64,000 nucleotides of DNA from a virus. The notes beneath the pieces are model-generated. The model worked only from the letters and a program-made list of their open reading frames with translations. It was not told the DNA's origin and searched no databases. Position 1 is the stretch's first letter. Each line of letters begins with the position of its first letter. Location of the stretch: the IMG/VR virus record IMGVR_UViG_3300046323_000419, positions 36,364-100,363 of that record; one strand, given 5' to 3'. The translations under genes and the position numbers were made by a program. Below are positions 29,535 through 46,755 of this stretch, in pieces.

Positions 29535-32500
29535 ATGAGTTGTAAGTTTATAGTAAACGGTACAGAATCAAAACTGTATGATAAAATATTAACAGCATTT
29601 AATGGAGATGAGGAGTTATCAAAAACTCTTCATTCTTCTTTTGCTAAAGATGATAAATTCATTAAAGAGTTTGGTGATTGGGATGATGCTTATAAAAATA
29701 GTTATGAAAATTTAGAAACCAAGTTATCTTATATAGACAGAACTGAAGATAATGGTGAACCAATGTTATATCAAAATGATAAAACTGGTGATTGGTATTA
29801 TTTAGATAAAGATTATAATAAAGTAATTCTTGTTGAGAATAAGAAAAGTTTAAATTCTTTATTTGAATATCAAGAAATTCAACAACTTACTAAAGTTTTA
29901 ACTAATGATTATTTTAAAAATCATTTAAAAGTTGATTTTAACAATATTGATTTAGAAAAAGAAACTGTTTCTATTAAAATGGCAGTTATTGCTAAACTTA
30001 GAGAAAGAATTGAATTTCTAAAAACTTCTGATGATGTTTATTTTGAAGATGTTGCAGATAGATTAGAAATAGCATTAAAAGATAATTTAAATGAAATTGT
30101 TGAAAATGTTAAAACTATTTTTGAACAAAATAAAATTAGTTATAAAGATAATTTAGATTCTGATGAAGATTCTAATTTATCTGAAATTGAGATTATAGAG
30201 AATCAAAAAGACCCTTCATATAATACTCAATCTAATGAAAAAAGTAGTAAAGAAGGTGTTACAGCTAATATTAAATTTAGATTATCATTAATTGAAGATG
30301 TTGAAAATTCAGATTATTTTTTAAATGATAAAGTATATATTGATTTTAATGTAATTCATAATGATTTATTAAGTCAATTATCAAATATTGTAGCATTAGA
30401 AAAAGATGGTGTACAAGAAGATAGATTTGAATTATTAAAAGCAGAAGTTTTAAAATTTGTAGGTAAAAAACCTTATTTTAAAGAACTTTATAGAATGTTA
30501 TCTGATCCAGATTTATCTGAAGAAATTAAAAATGAATTTTCATCTGCATTTAATTTACATCAAGGTAATTTAAATACATCTAAATTTAAAAGAGATAAAG
30601 ATGGTAATATAGAATGGTCTAATATTAATGCTGCACAATCTGCAAAGAAAGAAAATGATGTTTTATACGTTTGGGGAAATAATTTTAAAACTGATTTTGT
30701 TACTATTGATGGTGATAAATCATTTATAACTCCAGAGAATAAGAAAGTATTAAAATCTTATTCTGATAAACTTAATAAAATTAATGTACTTCAAGAAACT
30801 GCAGTAAATGATTTTATTGAAATATTAAGAGATTTAGGTGTTGAATCAACTATTCAAGGTTTTAATCATTATCTAGATGATTTAAAGCTAATTGGAAATG
30901 ATCCTGAAATATCTAATAAAATATTTAATAAAACTATAACAGGTTTAAAATATTTCTTTAAATCAATTGAAGATAATAAAATTTCTAATTTAGATGAAGC
31001 TTTTAATACTCAAACTATATTTAAAAATTTAGCTAGAGCTGAAGTATTTTATATGGCTGAAAATGCAGATTTTTCTGTATTTACAGGTGGTAAACAAAAA
31101 TGGACATTTTCATATCCGTCATTTTTATCAAATACAATAGAAGCTTGGAAAAAAGATAGAAATATATTATTAAATCATTATCAAGCATCTGAATATAATT
31201 CAGGTTCTTATAAGATGAAATATTTACTAGCATTTGGAGATACTTATGAAGTTGATGAATTAACTTTACCAGAAGCTCAAGAAGCAGCTAGAGTTGAAGA
31301 ATCTAAGAAAAGAATTAATGATATTAGTTTAGGTAGTTTTAATGTATTTCAAGAAGAAAAGGAAACTACTACAGAATCTGCAAATGTTAAAGAAATAAAT
31401 GAAAATCTATATATTTTAGATAATGTTAATAAAACTGTAGCTTTCATTAATGGTGGTTTATCTTACCATAGAGGTACTACACCTGCGGAAAAAGGTACTC
31501 AGTATGAAATATCTATGGGTGGAAATATATCCACAAATGCAAGATATGGTGGTGAATTTGGTATAGATTTTAATGAAGAAGCTTTAGATATAGTATTTGA
31601 ATACTTTGATTCTGAATATAGAAGAATGAGAGTTGAAAATGCTTTTATGGCTGATGAAAATAATAGTAATAAATTAATTACTTATTATCATTTGGGTGCA
31701 AAAAATGTTTTTAAATCACAGTTATTTCCATCATTAAGTCCTAATGAAATTGCTAATGCTGCTAAAGATTTTGGTAGCAATTTTCATTTAATATATGAAA
31801 ATGGTAATGCTTATTTAGAAACCTTAAAAGGTTCTGATTTTGAAGCAGATATTAAACGTTATATTAAAAAAGCATTAGTAGAAGATATTATAGATGTGGA
31901 TGGTACTTTAAGTAGTTTAGTAAAAGCTGGACTATTTGAACAAAATGCAGATAGTTCTTATAAAAATTTAGGAATTGATTCTAAAGTTTGGGATAAATAT
32001 GGTCAAGATCAAGCGCTTAAAGTAGCTACAGATTATTATATTAATTCTTTAATAGCACAAGTTGAATATTCTAAAATGTTTGCTGGAGATGTAGCTTATT
32101 ATAAAAATGGAGTTGATTATAAAAAACGTATTCCCGCTACATATACAGATGGTATTTATCAAAGACTTAATGATAAAAATAAGAATTTTACAATTGCAGT
32201 TATTGAAAGTGTAAATATCGCTAGTCCATTTCATCCAGCTATTGAAGAATTAGTTGGTGAAAAGATTGCAAAATATTATACAGATATTAATTCTGCTGAT
32301 GCTCAAGCTTGGATTACACCTGCTAGATGGAAAAATCTTATTGAAAGTTTAGGTAAATGGAATTCAATATATCAATCAGCTTATGATAAATTAGAAGGTA
32401 TTAATAATGAACCTTTTACTGAAAAAGAGTTAAAGAAAGTAGCTCAACCTTTAAAAGGTGTTTACTTTCAAAATATTAATGGACAACCTGTGTTTTTAAA

Positions 32501-35500
32501 ATATTCACAAGCTGTCTTAACACCACGATTACGTAAAGGTAATGATTTAGAAAAACTTTATGATAAGATGGTTAATTCGGGTGTTGATGAATTATTAACA
32601 TTTGACGCAATTAAAGTAGGTTCTAATCGACCAACTCGTACTTATGATGATAATGGTGCTCTTTTAGAAAATTTTGTATTAAATCCAATGATATTACCTT
32701 CTAATGGTTGGAAGTTACAACAAGACTTACCAACTAAGACAATGCACGCTACTGAATTAGGTTCTCAATTACAAAAAAATATTTTTCAAGGTTTAGCTTT
32801 TAATAAAGCTGAGGAATTTGAAGTAAATGATGAAGAATTATTTACTGGTGATCAAATGATTGAGAATATTGCAAATGTTGTAGGAGATTTATCAGATTTA
32901 GGTTATCAAGGTGTATTAGAAGAATTTGGAGTTGATGCTACTGGTAAAATTAATAATTTAGATACTTTTTATAATTCAATTATTTCTGAATTAAAATCTA
33001 GAAATGGTTCTAGAAATATAATTAAAGCTTTAGAATCTGAAGTTTCTATTTATGGATTACCACAAGTTCAAAAGAAATTACAAAATATATTTGGTGCAAT
33101 TATGACTAAACGTATTTTGAAAATTCAAACTAATGGTGGTTCATTTATACAAATGTCTAATTATGGTTTAAATAGTGAAAATGCAGAAAGTCAAAATGTA
33201 ATATGGAGTCCAAACGCATTAGCTACTACACACGAACCACAGTTTTTAAAAGATGATAAAGGTGAATTTATATTATCTAAAAATGGTAAAAAGATTGTTA
33301 GACCTGGTGGAGTATTAATATCAGGTTCATTTATTGCTAAATATATTCCTGATTATGCTACGAAATCACCTAAAGAATTATTTGGTTATACAAATGAAGA
33401 AGGTGAATTTATTAAAGGTGTAATTGATGATAGAATTCTTAACAATATAATAGGATATAGAATTCCTAATCAAGGTTTATCATCTAATGATGCTTTACAA
33501 ATAGTAGGCATTCTTCCTGAAGAAAATGGAGATACAATTGTAGCTTATACAGGTATTACTACTAAAACAGGTTCTGATTTTGATATTGATAAAATGTATA
33601 TAATGTTTCCATCATTCAATCACAATGTCGAATCGAACAATTTAGAATATATTAATTATAATTCTGAAAATAAAACTAAAGAAGGTTTACAAAATAGATT
33701 AATTGAATTATACAAATCTGTTTTATTAAATGAAAAAGTTATACCAGATGTAATGACACCTATTGACTTTGATTTTATGAAAAATGATATTAGGAGTATA
33801 TTTAAACAACCTGCAATAACTAATTTAAGTTTATTTAACCCATTAAAAGATATTAATATTCGTTATGGGTTCTTAGCTGGGCAAGCTGGTGTAGGACAAC
33901 AAGCTAATGCGTTAATGTCATATGTATTAGGCAGTATGTCTGATATGTCACTAACTAACTTTAGCGTACCTAATTCTAATAATAAATTAGACCAAGAATA
34001 TTCTAATAATTTATCTAATGAAGATATTAATTATTATAAGAAATTTTTAAAACTTAGTGATGAACAAGTTAAAGAAATTAAATCTATTAAAATTGGTAAT
34101 TCATTATCAGCAGTATTAAATGCTTTTGTGGATATTGCAAAAGATCCATATATTACAGAAGCTGGTTGGACAACTATGACAACTAATACAGGTAACTTAT
34201 TATTAAGATATGGTGTACATCCTTTTTATGTAAATGCTTTATTATCACAAACTGTAATTCAAGATTATGTTAAATTTAGTCAAAAATATGAAAAGTCTAA
34301 TGACCAAAGTTTAAGTACATTAGATGCTTTTATTGAACAGGAATTTGGTAAAGATACTTATAAAGATTATAATAAAAAGAATGTTTTAAATAATTCATTA
34401 GAATCTTTAAGAGATCAAATTGGTAAACAAGGTTCAGATGAACACAGAATGAATACTTTATATTCATTTCTATATTTTCAAGATGGTTCTAAAGTTTTAC
34501 AAAAAGCTGTTAATGCTTCTAAATTTATGGTTAATGGTGCTGGTAAGAATATAACATCTTTACAAATATCTAAAAATTCTGTAGATTCTATATTAGAAAA
34601 TGAAACTAAACATAATGATAAACAAATTGTATTAAATGGGTTTCAAAGTTTATTTCAAAATCCTAATGGTAGTGAATCAATGTTTTCAAGATATTATACA
34701 AATGTTGTCTTAGGAGTTGATAAAATTGTTAAAGCTAATCCTAAATTATTCTTATCTGCAAATTCTGTTATACAAAATTCATTTAATGAAATAGCATATG
34801 ATTTAAGTAACGATAAACTTTTAGATAATGAATTAGGTGATGAATTAGAAATACACGCTTATAGTTACTTAATGTCAGGATTTCAACCTTTAAATATATC
34901 AATTGCTGAAAAAACAGAGTTACTTACAAATTTTGTAAATGAATTTAAAAAATTTCAAACGGATAATAAAGAACTATATTCTATTGTTGATTCATTAGTT
35001 GTTAAACCTGGAAGTGGTAAAATTGATTATATTACATTAAATAACAGAATTAAAAGTCCAGAAATTGAAGAATCTTTAACTAATTCATTCTCAGATTTAT
35101 TAGATAAAGAACCTGAATTTACTGAAAAGTTAATTAAATATTCATTTTTAACATCAGGATTTTCAATGAATCCTAATCAGTTTTTTACTCATATACCATC
35201 TCAATGGATGATGAGAAATAATATAAATAGATATATTATTGATACTAATGATAATTATAATAATAATGAAGTTAATGATTTTAATATGATTGACCAATTT
35301 TATTTATCAAATATAGATAATACTAAATATGTTAAAAATGTAACTGAAGGTCAAATTGATGTTTTAGTTAAAGTATTAAATGACTCTGGAGAACTTCAAA
35401 CATTTGATATTAGAAAAAATGGTTTTGTAATGAAAAAAACTGGTAAACAAGGTTATTTTAAAGTTAAATCTACAGAATCTGGTGTAATTTATTATAAACT

Positions 35501-36038
35501 ATTAGGTTATACATTTGATGGTAAAGGAGTTTATACTAGATTTATCACTAATACTCAAGGTAAATTTGTCGATATTCAACCTCTTAATAAAAAAGATAAA
35601 AAAGGTAATCGTATTTATGGTTATAGTAGAGAAGGTATTATTTTAAAATCATCTTCAGAAACTATTGGTAATTTAGCAACTGTAAGAGGTCAAAAGATAT
35701 TAAATGATTTAGCCGTAATACCTAGAGATGCTGAATATCATAATGAAGTTATTCCAAATGAAGTGAAAGTTGATAATATTATTATAGAACCTAAGTTAGA
35801 AATTAAATCTGAAATAGATATAACTAATCAAACTGAAATAAAAGTTGATAATATTATGGAAAATAATAATCTAATTGAAAAAGAAGTTATTTTTGAACCT
35901 TTAAATTTTAACTTTAAATTTGTAGATAATAAAACATTAGTGGATAGTGATTCACCTATAGATAATAAAACTTTACAGGATAAACTTAAAAAAACATATA
36001 AAGAATTAGATTTACTTATAAAATGTATAGGATTATGA
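29535..36038 (+). CDS. Virion-packaged single-chain two-barrel RNA polymerase (phi14:2 gp66-like)
   Basis: 2167 aa; catalytic GSDFDIDK (DxDxD), GYRIPNQG, ADAQAW, NAFVDIAKDP, KRI..T motifs. Confidence 0.92.
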   Translation: MSCKFIVNGTESKLYDKILTAFNGDEELSKTLHSSFAKDDKFIKEFGDWDDAYKNSYENLETKLSYIDRTEDNGEPMLYQNDKTGDWYYLDKDYNKVILVENKKSLNSLFEYQEIQQLTKVLTNDYFKNHLKVDFNNIDLEKETVSIKMAVIAKLRERIEFLKTSDDVYFEDVADRLEIALKDNLNEIVENVKTIFEQNKISYKDNLDSDEDSNLSEIEIIENQKDPSYNTQSNEKSSKEGVTANIKFRLSLIEDVENSDYFLNDKVYIDFNVIHNDLLSQLSNIVALEKDGVQEDRFELLKAEVLKFVGKKPYFKELYRMLSDPDLSEEIKNEFSSAFNLHQGNLNTSKFKRDKDGNIEWSNINAAQSAKKENDVLYVWGNNFKTDFVTIDGDKSFITPENKKVLKSYSDKLNKINVLQETAVNDFIEILRDLGVESTIQGFNHYLDDLKLIGNDPEISNKIFNKTITGLKYFFKSIEDNKISNLDEAFNTQTIFKNLARAEVFYMAENADFSVFTGGKQKWTFSYPSFLSNTIEAWKKDRNILLNHYQASEYNSGSYKMKYLLAFGDTYEVDELTLPEAQEAARVEESKKRINDISLGSFNVFQEEKETTTESANVKEINENLYILDNVNKTVAFINGGLSYHRGTTPAEKGTQYEISMGGNISTNARYGGEFGIDFNEEALDIVFEYFDSEYRRMRVENAFMADENNSNKLITYYHLGAKNVFKSQLFPSLSPNEIANAAKDFGSNFHLIYENGNAYLETLKGSDFEADIKRYIKKALVEDIIDVDGTLSSLVKAGLFEQNADSSYKNLGIDSKVWDKYGQDQALKVATDYYINSLIAQVEYSKMFAGDVAYYKNGVDYKKRIPATYTDGIYQRLNDKNKNFTIAVIESVNIASPFHPAIEELVGEKIAKYYTDINSADAQAWITPARWKNLIESLGKWNSIYQSAYDKLEGINNEPFTEKELKKVAQPLKGVYFQNINGQPVFLKYSQAVLTPRLRKGNDLEKLYDKMVNSGVDELLTFDAIKVGSNRPTRTYDDNGALLENFVLNPMILPSNGWKLQQDLPTKTMHATELGSQLQKNIFQGLAFNKAEEFEVNDEELFTGDQMIENIANVVGDLSDLGYQGVLEEFGVDATGKINNLDTFYNSIISELKSRNGSRNIIKALESEVSIYGLPQVQKKLQNIFGAIMTKRILKIQTNGGSFIQMSNYGLNSENAESQNVIWSPNALATTHEPQFLKDDKGEFILSKNGKKIVRPGGVLISGSFIAKYIPDYATKSPKELFGYTNEEGEFIKGVIDDRILNNIIGYRIPNQGLSSNDALQIVGILPEENGDTIVAYTGITTKTGSDFDIDKMYIMFPSFNHNVESNNLEYINYNSENKTKEGLQNRLIELYKSVLLNEKVIPDVMTPIDFDFMKNDIRSIFKQPAITNLSLFNPLKDINIRYGFLAGQAGVGQQANALMSYVLGSMSDMSLTNFSVPNSNNKLDQEYSNNLSNEDINYYKKFLKLSDEQVKEIKSIKIGNSLSAVLNAFVDIAKDPYITEAGWTTMTTNTGNLLLRYGVHPFYVNALLSQTVIQDYVKFSQKYEKSNDQSLSTLDAFIEQEFGKDTYKDYNKKNVLNNSLESLRDQIGKQGSDEHRMNTLYSFLYFQDGSKVLQKAVNASKFMVNGAGKNITSLQISKNSVDSILENETKHNDKQIVLNGFQSLFQNPNGSESMFSRYYTNVVLGVDKIVKANPKLFLSANSVIQNSFNEIAYDLSNDKLLDNELGDELEIHAYSYLMSGFQPLNISIAEKTELLTNFVNEFKKFQTDNKELYSIVDSLVVKPGSGKIDYITLNNRIKSPEIEESLTNSFSDLLDKEPEFTEKLIKYSFLTSGFSMNPNQFFTHIPSQWMMRNNINRYIIDTNDNYNNNEVNDFNMIDQFYLSNIDNTKYVKNVTEGQIDVLVKVLNDSGELQTFDIRKNGFVMKKTGKQGYFKVKSTESGVIYYKLLGYTFDGKGVYTRFITNTQGKFVDIQPLNKKDKKGNRIYGYSREGIILKSSSETIGNLATVRGQKILNDLAVIPRDAEYHNEVIPNEVKVDNIIIEPKLEIKSEIDITNQTEIKVDNIMENNNLIEKEVIFEPLNFNFKFVDNKTLVDSDSPIDNKTLQDKLKKTYKELDLLIKCIGL

Positions 36039-36358
36039 ACGAAGATTTAGAATTTGAAAGATTACTTATTGAAAAAAGACATTCTGAGTTAATAGTTTTA
36101 TTAACTAAAATGTTAAATAAACCATCTTCTACTACAGATTTAAAAAAAATAGAAAGTCTTTTAACTTTATTATCTGAAAAAAAAGAAGATAATATTCCAA
36201 AAAGTATTCAAATATTAAGTGAAAGTATTATTAAAAGTCAAAATAAATTAATTTCAACAATTGAAGAACTTAAAAATAAAAAAGGTGAATGGACATTTGA
36301 AATTATAAGAAATACTTATGGTAATATATATGAAGTTAAAGCAATTCAAAATAAATAA
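36035..36358 (+). CDS. Hypothetical coiled-coil protein, first gene of inserted cassette
   Basis: ATG overlaps RNAP TGA; C-term WTFEIIRNTYGNIYEVKA. Confidence 0.55.
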   Translation: MNEDLEFERLLIEKRHSELIVLLTKMLNKPSSTTDLKKIESLLTLLSEKKEDNIPKSIQILSESIIKSQNKLISTIEELKNKKGEWTFEIIRNTYGNIYEVKAIQNK

Positions 36359-36424
36359 AAATGGTAGCATTTACAATAACTACATTCAGAACTTTAGAAA
36401 TTATAACAGTAAAAAAAATAAATT

Positions 36425-38770
36425 ATGCCAGCAATAAGAGATTCATCATTTAACTTTAATACAGCTACAGCAGCTTCCTTAGTCTTACCTGCGGTGAATT
36501 TGGTAGCAAACGATTTATTGATAGCGTTTATATCTATAGATACAGGTACGGCTGCGGTCACTTCAACAGGATGGACAGAACTATTCCGTACTACATCAAC
36601 ATCACAGTTGGTGTGTATGTATAAAATAAGCAACGGAACTGAAGGAGATATTACTTTTGCGTACACGACAGAAACAGCAGTGGGTTGTTTAATAGCTATC
36701 AAAGACGTTAATACTACCAATCCATTTGGAGCAACTCCAGTTTTTAATAGTGCAGCATCAGCCACGACGGCTAAAATTACTATGCAACAAATTACTACTA
36801 CTATTCCAAACTCATTAGTATTATACGCTAATGGTCGTTCAGCAGTAGGTATTCCATCGTTTTTAGAAGGTGCAGTAACAAGTTTATTTGCAGGTGATGG
36901 AGGTGCAGAATCATTAGCAGTAGGTTGGGGGTTTCAACCAACGGCAGGATTAACTCCAAACAATATAGTATCATCAGCTTTAGCAGCAGTTGCAGGAGTT
37001 AGAGCAGTTATACAAATTGCTCCGCCAAGTGGAGGTGCTACCGTGATACCTACATATTGTGCTTCGGATTTATCAATTTATGTAGACCCTATTAACGGAA
37101 CAAGTGCTTACAATGCAAATACTGCATTGGCAGCTACGGCAGATACAGGATTTAGTACATCATTAGGAGGTTTAGTTGCAGCAGACGCAACAGTTGCAGC
37201 CGTTACAGATGTTGGAATTAACTCGTTTCACTCCGTAGGAAGATTGACATCAATATCAGCTAGTAAAAACTTATCTGGTGCAGAATTAGTTTTATTGGAT
37301 GCTAATAGACCAAATATTACAGGAAAAAACATATTAGTGCATTTAGGAGCAAGTACAGAGGGACAACTTCAAAGGTTTTCAAGTGTTGCGTCAGGCAGAG
37401 GAATATGGTTTGGTGTTCGTAGTGGAGCTGCAAGTAACTGGAAAATATGGCAGGTTTACGGTGCGGAAAATGGTATTGGTAGACATAAACCTGTAATTAT
37501 AAATTCATCAGCTTTAAACGTAAAATCAACAAATGGAACATTAGACACGACATTAGCTAAAGCATTTGGATTTTGGGTGTCAGGTTCTGGAGTTACAACG
37601 ACTATTTGGGATTTCGCTTCCTTATGGGTTTTAGATACGTGTGCTGTAGCAGGTGGTATTGTTGCTTTTCCTATGGATATTTCAGGAATAACAAACGCAG
37701 CGGCTACAGGAAAAGAAAGAAAAAACATTCTACAACAAGGTGAAAAACAAGCATTATTATTAAGCCATATACAGATAGGAAACGGTGGGACATACCCTGT
37801 TTATTTAAACTTAGATGGTACAGCTATTGAGTTTCCTAAACAATATGATGAAAGTATTGCGCAAGCGAGCTACAATAGTGTTGATAATGTATGTGGACTC
37901 ACTTACTATGCAGGTGCTAATGATGTTATAAAACACATAAATTCAGTTGTTTCTTCTTCTTCTCGGTATAAATGGGGTTTACATGCTTCAAGTTCAGCAA
38001 GTGCAAGTTATGATTTTTCAGGGCTTTCTGTAATTGGGGCAGGGACAATAACATTAGCAATTGCAATTACTATTACGGAGTTGACAATAAACAACTACTC
38101 TACTTTAGATATATCTAGTGCAGATTTAGTTAACTGCACAATTTTAAACGTTCCAAGTGCAAACGATAGTATGACTTCCAACGCTTCAACTTCTATTACA
38201 GGAAGTACTATAAACGTTACAGGTGTTACTGCTGGAAATAGATGGTGTTCAGTAGCAAACCCTTCAATATTTAGTAATTCAACATTTATAGGGTCTGGAA
38301 CTACAGGACACGCAATAAGAATTACAACTCCAGGGACATACAGTCTAAGTAATTTAATATTTACATCATTTGGCGCAAACGCTACGAATTTTTCGGCTAT
38401 TCATAACGATAGTGGAGGACTAGTAACATTGAATATATCAGGAGGGACAACTCCTACAATTAGAAATGGAGCAGGTGCATCAACAGTTGTAAACAATAGC
38501 GTATCAATAACCATTGAAGGTAATGTTAGTTTATTAGGTGCAGAGGTTAGAATATATGACTTAGATAACGCACCCGCAGGAAGTTTAGGGACTGAATTAT
38601 CAGGAACGGAATCTAATGTCTCAGCAAACTATGTTTACAGTGGTGGGGCAGGAAATTTAATATTTATACAAATTATGAAAACAGGATACGTGGAATACGG
38701 ACAGTCTATAACTATTCCATCTTCAAATACAACAATTGACATTATTTTAACGAAAGACAATAACATATAA
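36425..38770 (+). CDS. Putative virion surface/fibre protein (beta-rich, beta-helix-like)
   Basis: 781 aa, Ala/Ser/Thr/Gly-rich, higher GC than flanks; C-term GAEVRIY..GTE motif. Confidence 0.55.
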   Translation: MPAIRDSSFNFNTATAASLVLPAVNLVANDLLIAFISIDTGTAAVTSTGWTELFRTTSTSQLVCMYKISNGTEGDITFAYTTETAVGCLIAIKDVNTTNPFGATPVFNSAASATTAKITMQQITTTIPNSLVLYANGRSAVGIPSFLEGAVTSLFAGDGGAESLAVGWGFQPTAGLTPNNIVSSALAAVAGVRAVIQIAPPSGGATVIPTYCASDLSIYVDPINGTSAYNANTALAATADTGFSTSLGGLVAADATVAAVTDVGINSFHSVGRLTSISASKNLSGAELVLLDANRPNITGKNILVHLGASTEGQLQRFSSVASGRGIWFGVRSGAASNWKIWQVYGAENGIGRHKPVIINSSALNVKSTNGTLDTTLAKAFGFWVSGSGVTTTIWDFASLWVLDTCAVAGGIVAFPMDISGITNAAATGKERKNILQQGEKQALLLSHIQIGNGGTYPVYLNLDGTAIEFPKQYDESIAQASYNSVDNVCGLTYYAGANDVIKHINSVVSSSSRYKWGLHASSSASASYDFSGLSVIGAGTITLAIAITITELTINNYSTLDISSADLVNCTILNVPSANDSMTSNASTSITGSTINVTGVTAGNRWCSVANPSIFSNSTFIGSGTTGHAIRITTPGTYSLSNLIFTSFGANATNFSAIHNDSGGLVTLNISGGTTPTIRNGAGASTVVNNSVSITIEGNVSLLGAEVRIYDLDNAPAGSLGTELSGTESNVSANYVYSGGAGNLIFIQIMKTGYVEYGQSITIPSSNTTIDIILTKDNNI

Positions 38771-38780
38771 ATAAACACAA

Positions 38781-40283
38781 ATGGCTTTAATTACACACTT
38801 AAATTTTACAACTACTTTAAAACAAAGTACTTCGCCTCGTGGCGCAACTCCAAATGGAAATTTCTATTTTGACGTAGCTAATAATGAAATTCAACTTATA
38901 GGAGTTGATGAACTACCCACTGTCGACTTTGGTGGCGGTGCAGTTACCAATCCTTTGAACAATGCGGATGGACTCACAATGAGAGCTATCTACAACTTCG
39001 AAAACCAAGAAAGAAGACTTGACGAAAATCTAAGAAAGTACTTAAGAGGTACGGATGGAGATTACCGTTTTGCGGGTGCATTCTCTTTTGTGAATGGTGT
39101 GAAATTAGACGGTACAGACAGGAATAAAATTAGAGGGTCTGGTTTTATTGAGTATGCAGATACGCAAGACGGACAAACAGACGTAGATAGAATCTATCAT
39201 GGTGTACTATCATTGGTATCTATTCAGCCTGGTACAACAACAAGGTTTGCATTAGTTACAGATACAACTGAAACTACATTACAGTCCGCTACATGGGAGA
39301 GTTTTGTTAGACTTGGCGACGTTAATGAGGTAGTACAAGTTTACGGAAGTACTTCTTTTGGTGATGCAGGCGCAGGGAATTTCGATTACACTACAAGAAC
39401 ATTGATTGTTCGTGTACGTTCTTGGGGTTACAATGCAGGTGAAACAACTTCTGTATTAACTGGTATTTCTGAGTTCTCAGGATTCTCCGCAGGTTATGGT
39501 GTTGGTGAATCTATCAATCCTTCAAACTCGTACACATTAGCCAATGTTTTTGGAGGTGCGCAAATTGCTCCGTGGACAGGAATGACATTAGAAAAATTAG
39601 CTGCTCCGCAAGTGGAGTCAGGATTTAATGAAGCAAATGGTAACTTTACATGGGTTTTAAACAACACATTAGGCGGTACGGTACAAGAATGTGCAGCGTA
39701 CTTGGATGCTGTTGCTTTGCAAAATTTAGATATTGATTCAGGCGCAGGAACTTACAACGGATTAAAAGGACGAGTTTGGTACAGTAGGAATGCGGCAGGT
39801 AAAGTTGTGACATCTTCTATAAGTGGTGCAGGTTTATTTATTGAGAATTTAAGTACAGCAGAAAAGCAAAATGTTATAATGACAGATAACGCTGGAGCTA
39901 CTAAAACATATCCATTTTACCCTGAAGTACAAATAACAGTTGGTTCAGCGGCAGTTGCAGATGCGAACGCTTGGTATCACGCATTTTATGTGGATGGTGC
40001 AGCAGCAGCAGATTTTGATGCAAATGGAGCGGTTACAGTTAATGATTCATTAGGTAATCCTGTAAAAGGAAATGTATCAGCGGATCATGTAGCAGGAAAA
40101 ATAAGTTTCCCTTATGATTATGATGGTAATACACAAGCGGGATTGGCAGCAGGAATAGATAAGTCAGTTGTTGTGGTTGTTGAAGGAGATGGGATAGCGT
40201 CGCAAGCTATTACCTATTTCACAATTACAAGAAGTACGATTGTTTCGGTTACTTGCGCACCTTCACTTGATACAAATGCTTAA
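38781..40283 (+). CDS. Putative virion structural protein
   Basis: 500 aa, Gly/Ala/Thr-rich, same cassette. Confidence 0.5.
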   Translation: MALITHLNFTTTLKQSTSPRGATPNGNFYFDVANNEIQLIGVDELPTVDFGGGAVTNPLNNADGLTMRAIYNFENQERRLDENLRKYLRGTDGDYRFAGAFSFVNGVKLDGTDRNKIRGSGFIEYADTQDGQTDVDRIYHGVLSLVSIQPGTTTRFALVTDTTETTLQSATWESFVRLGDVNEVVQVYGSTSFGDAGAGNFDYTTRTLIVRVRSWGYNAGETTSVLTGISEFSGFSAGYGVGESINPSNSYTLANVFGGAQIAPWTGMTLEKLAAPQVESGFNEANGNFTWVLNNTLGGTVQECAAYLDAVALQNLDIDSGAGTYNGLKGRVWYSRNAAGKVVTSSISGAGLFIENLSTAEKQNVIMTDNAGATKTYPFYPEVQITVGSAAVADANAWYHAFYVDGAAAADFDANGAVTVNDSLGNPVKGNVSADHVAGKISFPYDYDGNTQAGLAAGIDKSVVVVVEGDGIASQAITYFTITRSTIVSVTCAPSLDTNA

Positions 40284-40286
40284 TAT

Positions 40287-41609
40287 ATGTCGATACTCAA
40301 TCCTATAATAGACTCTATAGATGGAGCTACAAGAAGGATATATCTAAAGTCGGGAGTAGCTAACTACTTCCCGATTGATGATTTATACCAAGAATATAAA
40401 AGACTGAGAGCAACTGATGAAAACCTAAGAAAATATTACCCTTTGTTAAGAGCAGAGGGTAATATTCCTAAAGGGAGCGGTGCATTTACCCCTAGATATG
40501 TAGTTTTGATTAATGGAACTAAAATAGTACCGTTTAACGAAAGTTTGCAAATAAATCAGTTAGGAGATATGATTACGGACAATCCTGCGGTAGATGCTAC
40601 ATTATACGACATTAGCACTTTGACTGTCGCAAAACCAATCTTTATAAAACCATCGGAGGCGGAAACGATACAGTTAAATAGCACGCAAATAGAATACGCA
40701 TCGTATAACGGTGGTGTTACAATAGATGCTGTAAATGGTACAGATAGCTCAGCATATCCTTATGGTACACCTTTATTTCCATGTAAAACAACAGCAAATT
40801 CTTATGCAATTCGAGTTGCGAGAGGATTTAAAAAAGTATATCTAAGGAGTGATTTAAACTTAATAGGAATCCCTGACGGAATTTTAAATGGTTTAGATAT
40901 AATAGGTGAAACAGGGAATAGAAGACATACATTGACAGTGACTAACGTATTGGTAACTGATTGTAAAGCTACTAATATAAAGGTTAATGGAACATTTAAA
41001 AACGGCTCTACTACGCAAGCATCAGATTGTGAAATATTCGGGTCTTCAAATGTGAACTTACGAGCTGAAAATTGCAGTATATCTTCGGGGGTGTATGAAA
41101 GTACAAGCTTGACAAATTGTGTTTTGGATGGAGATATTAAGATAAAGACAGGTGGGAGCATGAGTGGAATAGGGATAATTTTTGAAGGTGATTTTACAAC
41201 TATCGATATGCAAAGTGCAGTTTCAACCGTTTCTATGGATGTAGACTCAGGATATTTTAAGTTGATGAATGCTGTTACAGGATGTTTAGCAGAATTTAAT
41301 TTAAGGGGTGGCGAAATAGAAATTGATACAACTTGTACAGGTGGAGAATATTATTTAGAAGGTTATGGTGTATTGTATAATGGGGGTACTATGATTGAAA
41401 AGGCAAATAATTTACAATCAGTTATTATTTCTGAAACAGTTGTGTCGGAAATGGATAACAATAGTGTTAAATTAGGTGAATTATATCAAATAGAAGGTTT
41501 AGATATTAATAATCCTGTTGTAATCACAGAAACATCTAAAACTACAGGTAGTATTAATTTGGAAATATCTGGAAATGGTGAAACTCTATCAGTTATAACA
41601 AGACAGTAA
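40287..41609 (+). CDS. Putative virion structural protein with beta-helix-like region
   Basis: 440 aa; short Cys-spaced beta repeats (DCEIF, NCSIS, NCVLD). Confidence 0.5.
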   Translation: MSILNPIIDSIDGATRRIYLKSGVANYFPIDDLYQEYKRLRATDENLRKYYPLLRAEGNIPKGSGAFTPRYVVLINGTKIVPFNESLQINQLGDMITDNPAVDATLYDISTLTVAKPIFIKPSEAETIQLNSTQIEYASYNGGVTIDAVNGTDSSAYPYGTPLFPCKTTANSYAIRVARGFKKVYLRSDLNLIGIPDGILNGLDIIGETGNRRHTLTVTNVLVTDCKATNIKVNGTFKNGSTTQASDCEIFGSSNVNLRAENCSISSGVYESTSLTNCVLDGDIKIKTGGSMSGIGIIFEGDFTTIDMQSAVSTVSMDVDSGYFKLMNAVTGCLAEFNLRGGEIEIDTTCTGGEYYLEGYGVLYNGGTMIEKANNLQSVIISETVVSEMDNNSVKLGELYQIEGLDINNPVVITETSKTTGSINLEISGNGETLSVITRQ

Positions 41610-41875
41610 TGATGAAAACATTATCTAGAGCTACAAAAGGTTATTTATGTAAATCAAGTTTAACATTAAGTATTGCTACAAAAGGTTATTTATGTATTAA
41701 TAAATCTGTTGAAATTATAGATAAACCTTTTAAATATAAAAATAATTCTAGTAATACAAAATCACCTATTTTAAAATCACCTATTTTAAACAGATATGAT
41801 TTAGTAAGACAAGAGAATGATGATACAATATTATTAATAATTAAAATATTTATAGAATGTCAAGAAAATGCTTAG
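41609..41875 (+). CDS. Small hypothetical protein with internal duplications
   Basis: ATKGYLC twice and KSPIL twice; ends QENDDTILLIIKIFIEC. Confidence 0.5.
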   Translation: MMKTLSRATKGYLCKSSLTLSIATKGYLCINKSVEIIDKPFKYKNNSSNTKSPILKSPILNRYDLVRQENDDTILLIIKIFIECQENA

Positions 41876-42198
41876 AGCAATTAAATAATAAAAATGTTTT
41901 AGATGAATTTGATTCTAAAATAAAAAACGGAATATCTGAAAAAGTTGCTGTATTAGAAATTTTGAATAAACAAATTAGCAGTTTTAAAAATGAATATACA
42001 TTATTTATTAATGAGTTTAAAGATTTTAAACCAGAAATAAATAAATTTAAAATTATTGAAGATAATATTAATAATCAAATTCAAGAATTATCTAAAATAA
42101 AAGTTGATAATGTTGTAGAAGTTGATACTATTGTGGAAAATAAAATTGAAGATGATTGGCAAAATGAAGATAATGATGATACCTGTGTACCATTTTAA
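41857..42198 (+). CDS. 113-aa protein with terminal cysteines; putative cargo-chain adaptor
   Basis: Cys only at positions 5 and 110; C-terminal KVDN..ENK segment similar to RNAP tail. Confidence 0.55.
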   Translation: MSRKCLEQLNNKNVLDEFDSKIKNGISEKVAVLEILNKQISSFKNEYTLFINEFKDFKPEINKFKIIEDNINNQIQELSKIKVDNVVEVDTIVENKIEDDWQNEDNDDTCVPF

Positions 42199-42207
42199 TA
42201 AAAAAAT

Positions 42208-45200
42208 ATGAGTTGTAAAGATAAACAAAAATTTAAAACCTCGGAAGCCTCATCAAAGGCTTCCATGAGGTCTAAAGGAGCTATTGATAAATTTTTAAAT
42301 ATATTAGATATTAATGTATTTAACAAACTTAATAAAAAATGGACTGTAGATGCTAAAGAGAGATTTAATATTGATGGTAACCTATTTCGTAATGATGACG
42401 GTAAAGCCACCCCTAATAAAGCTGCGTTTAAACAAATAGATGCTGTTAAAGGAATTATTTATCCTAATAAAATAGATTTCAACGATCTTATAGGGTCTAA
42501 AAAAAATGAATTAGTTTCTGACGAATCTCAAAAAACACCTTCTGTCGATAATAATTCTAATTTGGAATCAAATAAATCTATGTTATTTGGTAGTAAATCT
42601 TTAAAAGATTCTTTTACTTCAACAGAAGTGTTACAAAATATTATAGATTCTAATTTAGATTTATCAGATTCCGCACTAGATTTAGTTGGAAAAGCTACAA
42701 AATTATTAAGAAATTCTAGAACTAGAGTTAAAATAATTAGTCAAGAACAGTTTGATAAAATGACTAAAAATTCTAAAGGTAAAGGTACCGCTGTAATGGC
42801 TTATAATTACGATTTAGGAAGTGTCATTTATATGCCAGAAAGTTCATTAACTAATTTTTCAAATGTTGAAATTGTAAGTTCATTTTTGCACGAAGTTGCT
42901 CACGAATTAAGTCTTAAGGCTGTTCTAGATCCAAAAACTATGGCTGAAAAGTCATTTAATGAATTTATTACAAAAGCTTTTGAACAGTATGAATATTTAG
43001 GAAAAGGTTTAAATAAAAGTGATAGTTATGGTTTTACAAATGTTCAAGAATTTGTAGCAGAATTATATTCTAATGATAAATTTCAAGAAGAAATTAAAAA
43101 TTTAGATAAAAACTTTTGGCAAAGATTTATAACTGAACTTAGAAGATTAGTAGGATTACCAAAATCTTTACAAAATGATAATTTAATTGAAAGTTTATTA
43201 TTAATTAAAACTGTCGAAGATTTTGTAAATGATAATGAAATTCAACTTAATAATCATAAAATCACAACTTCAGAAAGTAATAAAGTTTTATTAAAAAGAA
43301 TTGAAAGTGATTCACAATATAGTAGTTTAGAATCTAAATTAGATAATTTTATTGATAAAGCTAAAAAAGCAATGCAAGTTATTCAAGAAAAAACTATTAG
43401 ATCTAATAGAAAAAAATCTACTGAATCTAAAGAGGATCGTATTAGAGAAAATAAAGAATTAATAGATACTTTAAATAAATACGAAAAATCTCAAAAATGG
43501 AAAGCTATAATAGGTTATACACAATCTTTTAATAACACTATTAATCACGTTGAAAAATTATTAAATAATTTATTAAATACTAAAAATATTTATGAAGATA
43601 AACTCGATGATGTAATCAAATCATATAAAGATTATTTATCAGCTTATGATTTACTTCCTGAAATTAAAGAGTTGATGAGTCAAGCTGATTTAAAACAATT
43701 TGAATTAACTGAAGAAGAATTAGAAGATTATCAACAAATAAAAAATTTTTTAACTAAAGCTAAAGAAAAACATGATGCTATTGAAAGTAAATTTTTAGCA
43801 ATTAGCAAAGCTCAAATATTACAAGATTTTAGCAACCCGTTATATAATACAGAAGTTGAAACTAAACAACGTAATGAATTAATTAAAGAATATAATAGTT
43901 TATCTGATAAAGGTGGGTTAACTGTAGATCAATATATATCTAAAATGTTAAATACTAGAGACTTAGATGATTATAAAGCTGATTTAAAAGCATCTGCAGA
44001 AAAGATATTAAATGACCCATCACAAGATATTAGTGGTTTTTCAGCTAAATATGAAGATAATTTAAATACTAAAAGTAAATTTATTCAAGTTGTTAATCAA
44101 ATATTAATTGAATCTTTTGATAAAGTTAAAAGTTTAACTGTTGCAAAAGTTCATCAAATGGCTAAAACTTTTGATAAATTTATTAAAGAAAAGGGTAATG
44201 TTAAATTATCAGAACTTAATAAAAATTTAATTGAAAGAGATTCAGAAGGTAATGTTTATTTAAAAGGTAAATATAGTATTAAATTTAAAGAATCTTTTAC
44301 TAAACTTTTAAATAATATTGAAGATTCTTATGAAAATAGTTTTAAAAAATTACAAGTTCAAGATATTAATTTAGACTCTTTAAGAAAAGATAAGAAAACT
44401 ATTTCTTTACGTAAATCTGGCGAACATAATTTCATTGATAATGATATAGCTGTAGTTACTGTTAATGGTATTAATACTGGTATAAAAGTTCAAATAGATC
44501 AACTTAAAACTTTTAGTAACTTTAATAGTTTAAGTGATGAACGTAAAAATGATTTTGCAAAAGCAGTAGGTAATTATAAAGATTTTGAAGATTTTAAAAA
44601 TTCAAATGATTATGCCAAAGAAGATTCTAAAAAATCTCAAATGTATCCTGAAATTTATAATTTTATAAATAATTCTGGTTCAATGGATATTATATCCTAT
44701 GTTAAAGTAGAAGAAGATTCTAAAACATCTACTACATTTAAAAATAGGAATAAAATGTATAAAGCTTGGTTTAAAGAAAATACTATTAAAAATGAAAAAG
44801 GTAAAACAATACCAAATCCAAAATTTTTAAATAAAGAATTAATTGGAATTGAAAAAGAAGTTTTAGATAATTATATTAAAATTAATCAAGAAAACGATAA
44901 TATTGAAGGTTTTGATTCATTAATAACTAATATCATTGGTGCTGAATTTCATAAATTACCATCTCAAAGTAAATCTGATTTAGAAAGAGCTTTGGAGTTA
45001 GATATTAAAGGTTTAACTAAAGATAAATGGAATGATTTAACTAAAGTTAGAACTGATGATATTGGTATTGAAACTGGTAATGAGAATAAAAATAGTCAAG
45101 GTGAAATTATAAGACGTGTTAAAACAGCTTATAGAGGTAAAATTGACCCTAAAGAACAATCTTTAGATTTAGAAACAATGTTTAGAAATGAATATTGGAA

Positions 45201-46755
45201 TGGTCAAAACTTTAAGGAAAAAAGTAGACTTGAACCTAAGTTATTAATGATTACAGATATTGCTTTAAATAATGACTATTATACTGGTAAAAATAAAGAT
45301 GTTGTTCCAGGTTTAAGTAATACTTATAATAGACTTGTAGGTATTATGGAGCGTAATGTTTACGATATTATGAGTAAACACGGTGGTAATTGGGGTCAAG
45401 TTGATATTAATAAAGTTACAAATGCTTTAAATGGGTATGCTGCAAGTTTAGCTATGACACTTAACAAAGCTGCAAGTTTTACAAACGTTACTGGTGGTTT
45501 AACAGATATTTTTATAGAAGCTGTTGGAAGTCATAGATTTAATGTTGCAACTTTTGCTAAAGCTGAAGTTAAATACACAAAAGAATTACCTAATTTACTT
45601 TTAGATACAACTAAATCTGTTAAAACTTCTTATTTTAATCAACTTCTCGATATGTTTGATGTAATGGGTGGTCTTGGTCAAAATGAACAAGAAGCATTGC
45701 GTAATAATATACTTAGAAAATTTGGAACTACTCAATCTGGTAATATTTTAAATGATATGGGTGAACATGCAATGCATTCAATACTTACACAGTCTATATT
45801 AGATGGTATTAAAGCAATGGATGAAAATAACAATTATTTAGATAAAGATGGTAATGTTACAACTGAAACTAAAGGTGCGTCATTGGCAGATATGTTATAT
45901 TTTGATAATGAAGGTATATTAAAAATGAATTCTAAAGTTGCTTATTCTGGATTTAATTTAACTACTAAATATCACGAAGGTGGTAAATCTCAAGTCAATG
46001 CTTTAATTAAACATAAAGTAATGAATTTATTTGGTGTATATGATATTAAATATCAAAGTGAGTTTTCTAAAACAGTTGCTGGTAAATGGGTAATGTTGTT
46101 TAAAAAATTCTTTTTAAGTAAAGCGGCTTATAGATACACAGGATTTACAACTTCTTATAAAAAGAAATCTGAATTAACAGAAGATGATAGATTTTATAAT
46201 TCTGCTGAAAAAGAATATATTGAAGGTACTTATACTACATTAGTAAGATTTTTAAGAGAAACAGGTATTCCTAATTTACAAATGTTACAAACAATGTATA
46301 TGAATTGGAAAAATCTTAGTGAATATGAAAAATCTAATCTTAAAAAAGCTACTATGGAAATAATGTTAACGTCTGTTATATTACCATCGTTAGGTTTATT
46401 AATGGCTGGTATGGATGATGACGATGACGAAAACAATTTATTGTGGTTTTTCATATACGTAAATAGACGATTAACTAGAGAACTTGCTCAATTTAGAAAT
46501 CCGTTAGAGGCTGCTAAAATGATTGCAAATCCAGTTGCAGGTATTAGATTTATTCAAAATGGATTAAATTTTATATATGATGTTACAACACCAGTTAATT
46601 TTGTTCCAGGTGAAAATGAATCTGTATTTGGATATTTAGATGAAAATTCTAAAGGTGAAAATAAAATGTGGAATCACGCAAAAAAACTTGTTCCAATTAT
46701 ACCACAAATAGGTATTGATTATAAACAAAGATATGGTTTAGAATTTGCAAAATAA
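42208..46755 (+). CDS. Giant virion cargo protein with zincin metallopeptidase-like motif
   Basis: 1515 aa; FLHEVAH..QEFVAE; C-terminal hydrophobic segments; last gene of the late arm. Confidence 0.75.
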   Translation: MSCKDKQKFKTSEASSKASMRSKGAIDKFLNILDINVFNKLNKKWTVDAKERFNIDGNLFRNDDGKATPNKAAFKQIDAVKGIIYPNKIDFNDLIGSKKNELVSDESQKTPSVDNNSNLESNKSMLFGSKSLKDSFTSTEVLQNIIDSNLDLSDSALDLVGKATKLLRNSRTRVKIISQEQFDKMTKNSKGKGTAVMAYNYDLGSVIYMPESSLTNFSNVEIVSSFLHEVAHELSLKAVLDPKTMAEKSFNEFITKAFEQYEYLGKGLNKSDSYGFTNVQEFVAELYSNDKFQEEIKNLDKNFWQRFITELRRLVGLPKSLQNDNLIESLLLIKTVEDFVNDNEIQLNNHKITTSESNKVLLKRIESDSQYSSLESKLDNFIDKAKKAMQVIQEKTIRSNRKKSTESKEDRIRENKELIDTLNKYEKSQKWKAIIGYTQSFNNTINHVEKLLNNLLNTKNIYEDKLDDVIKSYKDYLSAYDLLPEIKELMSQADLKQFELTEEELEDYQQIKNFLTKAKEKHDAIESKFLAISKAQILQDFSNPLYNTEVETKQRNELIKEYNSLSDKGGLTVDQYISKMLNTRDLDDYKADLKASAEKILNDPSQDISGFSAKYEDNLNTKSKFIQVVNQILIESFDKVKSLTVAKVHQMAKTFDKFIKEKGNVKLSELNKNLIERDSEGNVYLKGKYSIKFKESFTKLLNNIEDSYENSFKKLQVQDINLDSLRKDKKTISLRKSGEHNFIDNDIAVVTVNGINTGIKVQIDQLKTFSNFNSLSDERKNDFAKAVGNYKDFEDFKNSNDYAKEDSKKSQMYPEIYNFINNSGSMDIISYVKVEEDSKTSTTFKNRNKMYKAWFKENTIKNEKGKTIPNPKFLNKELIGIEKEVLDNYIKINQENDNIEGFDSLITNIIGAEFHKLPSQSKSDLERALELDIKGLTKDKWNDLTKVRTDDIGIETGNENKNSQGEIIRRVKTAYRGKIDPKEQSLDLETMFRNEYWNGQNFKEKSRLEPKLLMITDIALNNDYYTGKNKDVVPGLSNTYNRLVGIMERNVYDIMSKHGGNWGQVDINKVTNALNGYAASLAMTLNKAASFTNVTGGLTDIFIEAVGSHRFNVATFAKAEVKYTKELPNLLLDTTKSVKTSYFNQLLDMFDVMGGLGQNEQEALRNNILRKFGTTQSGNILNDMGEHAMHSILTQSILDGIKAMDENNNYLDKDGNVTTETKGASLADMLYFDNEGILKMNSKVAYSGFNLTTKYHEGGKSQVNALIKHKVMNLFGVYDIKYQSEFSKTVAGKWVMLFKKFFLSKAAYRYTGFTTSYKKKSELTEDDRFYNSAEKEYIEGTYTTLVRFLRETGIPNLQMLQTMYMNWKNLSEYEKSNLKKATMEIMLTSVILPSLGLLMAGMDDDDDENNLLWFFIYVNRRLTRELAQFRNPLEAAKMIANPVAGIRFIQNGLNFIYDVTTPVNFVPGENESVFGYLDENSKGENKMWNHAKKLVPIIPQIGIDYKQRYGLEFAK

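Follow-up and report, generated by a model that had tools for sequence, protein, structure and literature searches.

We analysed a 64,000-nt stretch of the virus record IMGVR_UViG_3300046323_000419 (positions 36,364 to 100,363 of a record that is 100,363 bp long and rated complete). The whole of this stretch is called the window below, and all coordinates without a prefix refer to it. The window comes from a crAss-like phage close to Cellulophaga phage phi14:2. Our subject is the junction between the gene for the virion RNA polymerase (RNAP) and the third of three giant cargo genes, where a gap of 6.2 kb holds six open reading frames (ORFs) of 111, 781, 500, 440, 88 and 113 aa. Three of these ORFs form a 5.2-kb module whose origin in an unrelated tailed-phage lineage is well supported, and the 113-aa ORF beside the third cargo gene may supply an additional link in a proposed chain of cargo proteins joined through terminal cysteines. 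The features of the locus are listed here; contigs from other phages are referred to by handles such as L006.

23671..29532, + strand: first of the giant cargo proteins (1953 aa), shown by tblastn against phi14:2 and L006 to be homologous to g067 of phi14:2
29535..36038, + strand: virion RNAP, 2167 aa, homologue of phi14:2 gp66, with a DFDID motif
35761..35777, + strand: first KVDN unit of the RNAP tail, a copy of the 17-mer with 2 mismatches
35836..35852, + strand: exact left-hand copy of the 17-nt repeat; in frame it reads EIKVDN (RNAP residues 2101-2106)
35853..36038, + strand: RNAP tail past the repeat, native and AT-rich, ending ..LLIKCIGL
36023..36358, + strand: short AT-rich ORF of 111 aa, fewer if it starts at the ATG at 36035, which overlaps the RNAP stop codon; no relatives found
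36413..40672, + strand: segment homologous to contig L009 (L009 4301-8561), 87.35% DNA identity over 4261 nt, marking the left foreign edge
36425..38770, + strand: module gene 1, 781 aa, with N-terminal beta-sandwiches, a right-handed beta-helix and a C-terminal beta-sandwich in the AlphaFold2 model
38781..40283, + strand: module gene 2, 500 aa, a highly conserved multi-beta-sandwich protein (AlphaFold2 model, homologues)
40287..41609, + strand: module gene 3, 440 aa, with ~130 conserved N-terminal residues and a divergent C-terminal part
41610..41856, + strand: AT-rich spacer with direct repeats and an 88-aa ORF
41857..42198, + strand: 113-aa ORF with head MSRKC.. and tail ..DDTCVPF, a candidate two-cysteine link
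42095..42111, + strand: exact right-hand copy of the 17-nt repeat; in frame it reads KIKVDN, which makes up residues 79-84 of the 113-aa ORF
42146..42469, + strand: tail-end plus head unit, to which the 113-aa ORF contributes its final 17 codons and the third cargo gene its initial 87, with 9 nt between them
42208..46755, + strand: third of the giant cargo proteins (1515 aa), homologous to g065 of phi14:2
42466..42521, + strand: conserved block of ~50 nt encoding third-cargo residues 87-105, 91-96% identical in all relatives

The cargo block

The cargo proteins of the Crassvirales RNAP block are packaged in virions (bioRxiv 10.1101/2020.03.07.982082; PMC10172136). In tblastn searches the window RNAP matches phi14:2 gp66 with 28.5% identity over 87% of its length (E 1e-170), besides many weaker crAss-like matches, and the DFDID read in its translation has the DFDxD form of Crassvirales virion RNAPs. 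The genes flanking it on the same strand are homologous to those for phi14:2 g067 and g065 (tblastn, E 4e-50 and 7e-79, respectively). Three giant proteins are thus present as in the phi14:2 g067-g066-g065 and crAss001 gp47/gp50/gp49 sets, in the order seen in phi14:2 and with the DFDxD RNAP in the centre. Unlike in phi14:2, 6.2 kb of DNA, comprising the foreign module, a small ORF, a spacer and the 113-aa two-cysteine ORF, separates the RNAP from the third cargo protein. The closest relative that we found is L006, the RNAP of which is 84-88% identical to that of the window through residue 2115. A megablast search of positions 34000-44000 against GenBank phages returned no matches. The RNAP gene of L006 contains a group I intron (RF00028, 85 bits, full model) at L006:6628-6905, exactly within the catalytic DFDID motif.

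A foreign three-gene module

The module differs in base composition from its surroundings. GC content is 0.34-0.42 across 36500-41500, against 0.19-0.28 in the flanks. GC at third codon positions (GC3) is 0.196, 0.234 and 0.222 in the genes for the 781-, 500- and 440-aa proteins, against 0.06-0.16 in native genes; because GC3 is raised as well, the increase in GC is not purely an effect of amino-acid composition. The 111-, 88- and 113-aa ORFs have GC3 values of 0.06-0.09.

Homology to contig L009 begins 12 nt before the first start codon of the module and stops after ~130 codons of its third gene. The other genes of this contig encode a baseplate J-like protein, tail and tail-fibre proteins, an endolysin, a helicase and a primase, and are myovirus-like. 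L009 shares nothing with the window beyond the module, and its GC3 of 0.21-0.27 matches that of the cassette. Substitutions between the two copies are symmetric (184 with AT in the window and 186 in the reverse direction, with a GC content of 0.380 in both copies), and a test for amelioration detected no AT-ward bias in the window's copy of the module; such symmetry would be in line with the module having been acquired recently. No homologue of the 500-aa protein is present in the relatives G001 (the contig of the closest relative, 97% complete), G004 (99% complete), phi14:2, L007 and L008. Chimeric assembly is an unlikely source of the arrangement, because the exact 113-aa and 500-aa proteins are each recorded from 4 contigs, of up to 100,456 bp. 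Composition, homology and distribution together provide good support for the view that the 5.2-kb module (36413 to ~41609) is foreign and stems from an unrelated tailed-phage lineage.

The foreign DNA begins 561 nt past the left copy of the 17-nt repeat and stops 486 nt short of the right one. Searches with Pfam and PHROGs gave no useful match for any of the eight ORFs and placed no transposase, integrase or endonuclease family in the block, which also has no terminal inverted repeats. We considered and rejected insertion of a transposon or insertion sequence with target-site duplication, as the repeats are not flush with the foreign DNA and the block lacks both the enzymes and the terminal repeats expected of such an element. 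An insertion borne by a homing endonuclease or intron was likewise rejected, since no endonuclease family was matched in the block by Pfam or PHROGs; introns there were not scanned for with Rfam. Three sites with the phage promoter motif TAGG-N19-TATCTTTG were found, none of them within the block. The motif TAnnTTTG is absent just upstream of 36425 and 41857, and a simple terminator scan gave no more hits than the shuffle level.

The module proteins and their spread

Sequence searches of the three module proteins against the PDB gave no matches, as did Pfam and PHROGs. We therefore relied on structure predictions and on the distribution of homologues. The AlphaFold2 model of the 781-aa protein, built from a 40-sequence alignment, has a pLDDT of 92.6, with the beta-helix at about residues 405-745. 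In VIA-align comparisons the model matches CBA120 TSP2 with Z 14.8 (rmsd 3.4, 233 residues aligned) and an Acinetobacter phage tailspike with Z 14.6; Klebsiella phage depolymerases and polysaccharide lyases are also matched, at Z 14-15 over ~235 residues, in a list made up mostly of beta-helix proteins, and for repeat folds such Z values show the fold and not the function. By its model, then, the 781-aa protein has a tailspike-like right-handed beta-helix fold. It has at least 238 homologues. Full-length relatives with ~50% identity occur on contigs of 131-597 kb, some of which are named Candidatus Roizmanbacteria or Levybacteria, which hints at prophages or phages of candidate phyla radiation (CPR) bacteria.

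The 500-aa protein, the core of the module, is highly conserved. It has at least 733 relatives, falling into 267 clusters at 50% identity, and the best 120 listed are 72-90% identical to it; an annotation for the family was found nowhere. The AlphaFold2 model (pLDDT 94.4) is a chain of beta-sandwich domains, the C-terminal one of which is CnaB/transthyretin-like (Z 6-8). Foldseek against the PDB returned domain-level Ig/CnaB-like matches only, and the ESM Atlas only unnamed viral clusters. Among T7-like cyanophages, the Syn5 structural protein A4ZRD5 matches the 500-aa model in BFVD (Foldseek E 2e-7, probability 1.0), and S-TIP28 STIP28_56, annotated as a structural protein, is 24.6% identical over 96% of the query. 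Identity to these two proteins is low, and so are the TM-scores, owing to the long multi-domain chains.

A search with the 500-aa protein identified 16 viral contigs that carry it at 60-95% identity and have a GC content of 0.35-0.65 (in most of them, 71-76% identity and GC 0.39-0.58). Apart from one weak match in L016, these contigs have no other gene in common with the window at E 1e-5. The 500-aa gene always lies between a gene for a large protein with a conserved C terminus and one for a ~200-aa protein (loci L009-L024). In the window, the first ~130 residues of gene 3 are common to the usual third gene of the module, which encodes ~180-230 aa, and the remainder differs. GC3 is 0.31 in the N-terminal part of gene 3 and 0.19 in the C-terminal part, which reads as repetitive and spike-like in its predicted sequence. 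Genomic contexts vary widely. In L009 the module comes after genes for the baseplate, fibres and an endolysin, in L014 it separates the portal from the major head genes, and in L020 it lies upstream of a tape-measure gene; in Paraglaciecola GD virus 1 it is found among replication genes as gp104, gp105 and gp107.

We read the module as a self-contained tailspike/fibre appendage unit that moves between phages and would take its place on the virion. Tailspike gene swapping between phages is an ordinary event, and modular exchange of tailspikes and tail fibres, as in the CBA120 tailspikes and the Klebsiella phage depolymerases, likewise involves a beta-helix protein and a conserved adaptor with variable parts, swapped at gene and domain borders. 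The module described here differs in lying in an ejected-cargo operon and not among tail genes, and in the great variety of its genome contexts and phage types. A widespread, uncharacterised module with a central protein conserved in unrelated contexts suggests a self-sufficient surface appendage.

Several points made in a preliminary description of this DNA are borne out by these results. It had noticed that the genes at 36425-41609 are richer in GC than their flanks, which holds for total GC and for GC3, the latter being doubled. It had also taken the cassette to be foreign and structural, in agreement with the GC3 values, the 87% identity to L009, the absence from relatives and the tailspike-like folds. 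The search that it proposed for the cassette genes in other phages finds them recurring in many unrelated ones.

A variable junction between the RNAP and third cargo genes

In phi14:2, g067, g066 (the virion RNAP) and g065 are back to back with 2-nt gaps, and in L008 the end of the RNAP ORF is 9 nt from the third cargo gene. We compared the DNA between the RNAP and third cargo genes across relatives.

phi14:2, L008 and L026: nothing
L006: 167-aa gene (L006:9322-9825)
L007: 164-aa homologue of the L006 gene (L007:8302-8796) and a 243-aa ORF (L007:8800-9531)
L003: 423-aa protein (L003:154-1425) directly upstream of the third cargo gene; the contig ends before the RNAP gene

Adjacency of the RNAP and the g065 homologue therefore holds in phi14:2, L008 and L026 and fails in the window, L006, L007 and L003, so that the interruption noted in the preliminary description is real and has counterparts in relatives with other small genes. 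As judged from these sequences, the junction is a hot spot that takes up different extra genes in different relatives. The N terminus of the 243-aa ORF of L007 resembles a GIY-YIG homing endonuclease, by reading of the sequence alone.

Homology of the window to its relatives is mosaic around the junction. DNA identity to L006 is 90% up to 35781 and then ends. On the other side, the tail-end plus head unit at 42146-42469 is 84% identical at the DNA level to L008 1180-1503, which is the junction between the RNAP end and the third cargo gene in that contig: the RNAP ORF of L008 itself ends ..EDDWQNEDNDDTCVPF and is followed directly by the MSCKDK.. gene. This is the cassette-free arrangement, a ..CVPF-like RNAP tail beside MSCKDK, that had been predicted in the preliminary description. 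Because the genes that flank the unit in L008 are just 35-50% identical in amino acids to those of the window, the tail-end and head must have been exchanged together. The contig of L008 was the only one returned by searches with the 113-aa ORF and the junction pattern.

The sequence around the ~50-nt block at 42466-42521 is merely 60-70% identical among relatives. The block marks the right edge of the variable junction region and is a likely crossover point; it could act as an anchor for recombination or have a function of its own as a motif. The third cargo protein of L008 (2237 aa) has ~2.5 kb of extra sequence (L008:1503-4048) between the common head and this conserved block.

The RNAP tail and the 17-nt repeat

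The two exact copies of the 17-nt direct repeat lie at the positions given in the preliminary description, where they are in frame and encode (E/K)IKVDN, so that the protein similarity noted there is present as well. Chance, which had been raised as a caveat, accounts poorly for them: none of 300 Markov simulations of the two 700-nt flanks gave an exact shared run of at least 17 nt, and of 300 pairs of native segments drawn at random, 2 had one. Similarity beyond the 17-mer is weak (p 0.08-0.2 upstream and 0.01-0.05 downstream), and we do not claim a long duplication around it on such an extension.

KVDN-like units are native to RNAP tails, being found in the window at 35761 and 35836 and in L006 as KDDN, KVDN and IIDN. 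The RNAP of the window ends ..ELDLLIKCIGL, compared with ..ELLKKICK in the cassette-free L006 and L007. A weak collinear alignment of the window and L006 tails (37% identity over 60 residues, E 0.11) crosses the repeat and stops before the tail ends, and the ~40 residues after the left repeat are weakly collinear with the L006 and L007 tails. The 17-mer may mark paralogy or gene conversion between RNAP-tail units and not a target-site duplication.

The 113-aa ORF and terminal cysteines

The last 17 residues of the 113-aa ORF are well supported as an RNAP tail that has become separated from the polymerase, because L008 has the same tail as its true RNAP end. This detached tail carries one of two cysteines in the 113-aa ORF, and both fall into a pattern that extends over the whole cargo block. 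The g067 homologue has a single cysteine at residue 1952 of 1953 (codon 29524-29526). The RNAP has cysteines only at 3 and at 2164 of 2167 (codon 36024-36026), and the 113-aa ORF only at 5 (codon 41869-41871) and 110 (codon 42184-42186). The single cysteine of the third cargo protein is at 3 of 1515 (codon 42214-42216). In all, 6 cysteines occur in 5748 cargo residues, every one of them terminal, where 55 would be expected at the window background of 0.96%. Among 36 other window proteins, one has a cysteine in its first six residues and one in its last six. The cargo proteins of the window thus have cysteines only at facing ends, with one pair for each gene break.

The terminal-cysteine pattern recurs in phi14:2, L006, L007, L008 and L026. 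In crAss001, gp47 has Cys2339 (of 2341 residues), gp50 has Cys5, Cys2404 (of 2412) and one internal cysteine, and gp49 has Cys5; as gp47 is encoded on the opposite strand, the pattern belongs to the proteins and not to gene junctions. The intervening non-cargo genes of L006 and L007 have internal and not terminal cysteines. No cysteine pair is found at the split in the L006 RNAP, and because that split is a group I intron it does not truly interrupt the protein. In the 423-aa protein of L003, cysteines occur only at 3 and 420, and over its first 55 residues it matches the head of the undivided third cargo protein of L026 (L026:12110-14539) with 80% identity. To judge by its sequence, this protein is a second case in which a break in a cargo gene comes with a cysteine pair. 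Neither the 113-aa ORF nor the N terminus of the L004 ORF is similar to the 423-aa protein.

From this pattern, the 113-aa protein can be proposed as an extra link, a two-cysteine coupler, in a terminal-cysteine chain; we regard this as possible and, at its most favourable, close to evenly balanced. We are more tentative still about the further proposal that it is a working coupler of a disulfide-linked ejection train, in which the tail-end and head would be co-adapted docking modules exchanged as units. Terminal cysteines are mentioned neither in the phi14:2 RNAP paper (bioRxiv 10.1101/2020.03.07.982082) nor in the crAss001 atlas (PMC10172136), the latter of which reports the use of inter-protein disulfides in crassvirus virions. 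The nearest experimental precedent comes from cyanopodophage A4, where cryo-EM shows Cys1715 of gp27, next to its C-terminal helix, bonded to Cys5 of gp26 (PMC12002296). The geometry is the same as that proposed here for each break in the chain. A4 differs in belonging to another phage family and in having a single bond within a ring-shaped pre-ejectosome, whereas the present proposal is of a linear chain of three or four proteins. If it is right, the locus would be a natural experiment showing that the cargo chain needs a new cysteine pair wherever it is broken. The 113-aa and L003 423-aa proteins would then constitute an independent evolutionary test of the chain rule, and the 113-aa ORF, being short, offers a tractable target in which the bonds might be demonstrated.

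Origin of the interrupted junction

The account that we favour, with a probability of about 0.55 as a whole, is that a 5.2-kb tailspike/fibre module was acquired horizontally and now occupies a variable junction, a hot spot of recombination, between the genes for the RNAP and the third cargo protein, with the 113-aa protein as a link beside it. The module is embedded in ~1.1 kb of DNA of native composition, with the RNAP tail (..KC..) and the small ORF on its left and the spacer and the 113-aa ORF on its right. In the simplest form of this account there would have been two steps: the RNAP tail was duplicated or recombined off the polymerase, gaining a cargo-type head (MSRKC), and the module landed separately between the small ORFs. 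The chain would run from the g067 homologue to the RNAP, then presumably to the 113-aa protein, and on to the third cargo protein. The 17-nt repeat may have served recombination, yet it is not the edge of the foreign DNA. What is unusual about such a locus is the presence of the module inside an ejected-cargo operon, together with a small two-cysteine link.

Several observations count against this account. The tail of the window RNAP is only weakly similar to those of L006 and L007 (E 0.11 and 1.1). The repeat is above chance level, and deletion between its copies yields a tidy ..CVPF RNAP end, as a one-step insertion would predict. Searches of the viral-contig and metagenome collections found neither a closer relative than L006 nor an empty site of this lineage. 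The 113-aa ORF has no diverged relatives, and only its last 17 residues match elsewhere.

The one-step alternative is that proposed in the preliminary description, in which a block of 6.26 kb was inserted into the RNAP tail at a duplicated 17-mer, bringing with it a new cysteine tail and head. The exact, in-frame repeat would be its natural signature, removal of the DNA between the copies restores a ..CVPF RNAP beside MSCKDK as in L008, and DNA homology to L006 stops at 35781, near the repeat units. We nevertheless consider a single insertion improbable, as the foreign DNA begins and ends well inside the repeats, the intervening stretches have native GC3, and the block has neither a transposase or integrase gene nor terminal inverted repeats. 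The RNAP end motif is moreover common to cassette-free relatives, the weak L006 alignment crosses the supposed insertion point, and the donor would need to have been a crAss-like phage that already had the module. Thus, of the 6.3-kb insertion first proposed, the foreign cassette and the orphaned RNAP tail stand, whereas the foreign part is reduced to 5.2 kb lying ~0.5 kb inside the repeats. The idea that the cassette brought its own cysteine pair lacks firm support and is in part contradicted: because the new-tail and new-head stretches have native GC3 (0.06-0.09), they are not from the donor of the cassette. The preliminary description had itself named a match of relatives' tails to ..LLIKCIGL without a cassette as evidence against its insertion; the end motif in L006 and L007 is indeed alike, but the wider similarity is not significant. 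A different alternative, which is compatible with the module-transfer account and which we hold to be possible although somewhat unlikely, is that the whole variable region (~35782-42465, 6.7 kb) was imported ready-made from an unsampled crAss-like phage by homologous recombination at the conserved 3' part of the RNAP gene and the ~50-nt third-cargo block, the module and 113-aa gene having come together elsewhere. The mosaic of the region is in keeping with this, running from L006-like DNA up to 35781 through the L008-like unit at 42146-42469 to sequence nearest to L003, L004 and L007; so are the location of the ~50-nt block exactly at the right edge of the variable region and the much closer relationship of the tail-end plus head unit than of its flanking genes to L008. 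Searches of the viral and metagenome collections turned up no donor of this kind.

The role given to the 113-aa protein in our favoured account can be doubted separately. It could be a decaying leftover without a role, with Cys2164 of the RNAP pairing straight with Cys3 of the third cargo protein. The same pairing would apply in L006 and L007, whose unrelated intervening genes have no terminal cysteines and stay outside the pattern; the absence of relatives for all but its last 17 residues agrees with this. We think a leftover rather doubtful, given that the ORF is intact, that its MSRKC head matches the cargo heads MSKRC of crAss001 gp50, MAKKC of crAss001 gp49 and MSKEC of L007, and that terminal cysteines are rare (1 of 36 other proteins at either end). 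A free protein with two exposed cysteines would, if packaged, compete with the chain, and L003 has a comparable two-cysteine link in its 423-aa protein. Finally, a highly expressed structural region inherited vertically, or an assembly chimera, would dispense with transfer altogether. The abundance of Ala, Gly, Ser and Thr in the module proteins does raise GC at the first and second codon positions, but the doubling of GC3, the 87% DNA identity to an unrelated phage, the absence of the module from nearly complete relatives and the record of exact 113-aa and 500-aa proteins from several contigs make either version highly improbable.

Other sequence observations

Searches of viral contigs with the 111-aa ORF and a degenerate IKVDNVVEVD pattern found no loci, and two metagenome scans were likewise empty. 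The spacer contains two 35-nt direct repeats at 41617-41696 (22 nt exact, 45 nt apart) and tandem 15-mers at 41760-41790, which occur nowhere else in the window. The exact translation of its 88-aa ORF is not on record in the protein collection, and this ORF is probably not a gene. A possible second copy of the tail-end/head junction at 41796-41826 was discarded, as it consists of an 11-nt seed only, which is at chance level in such flanks. Elsewhere in the window, a second gene with foreign-like composition lies at 7393-9606, with a GC3 of 0.226 against 0.06-0.16 in native genes.

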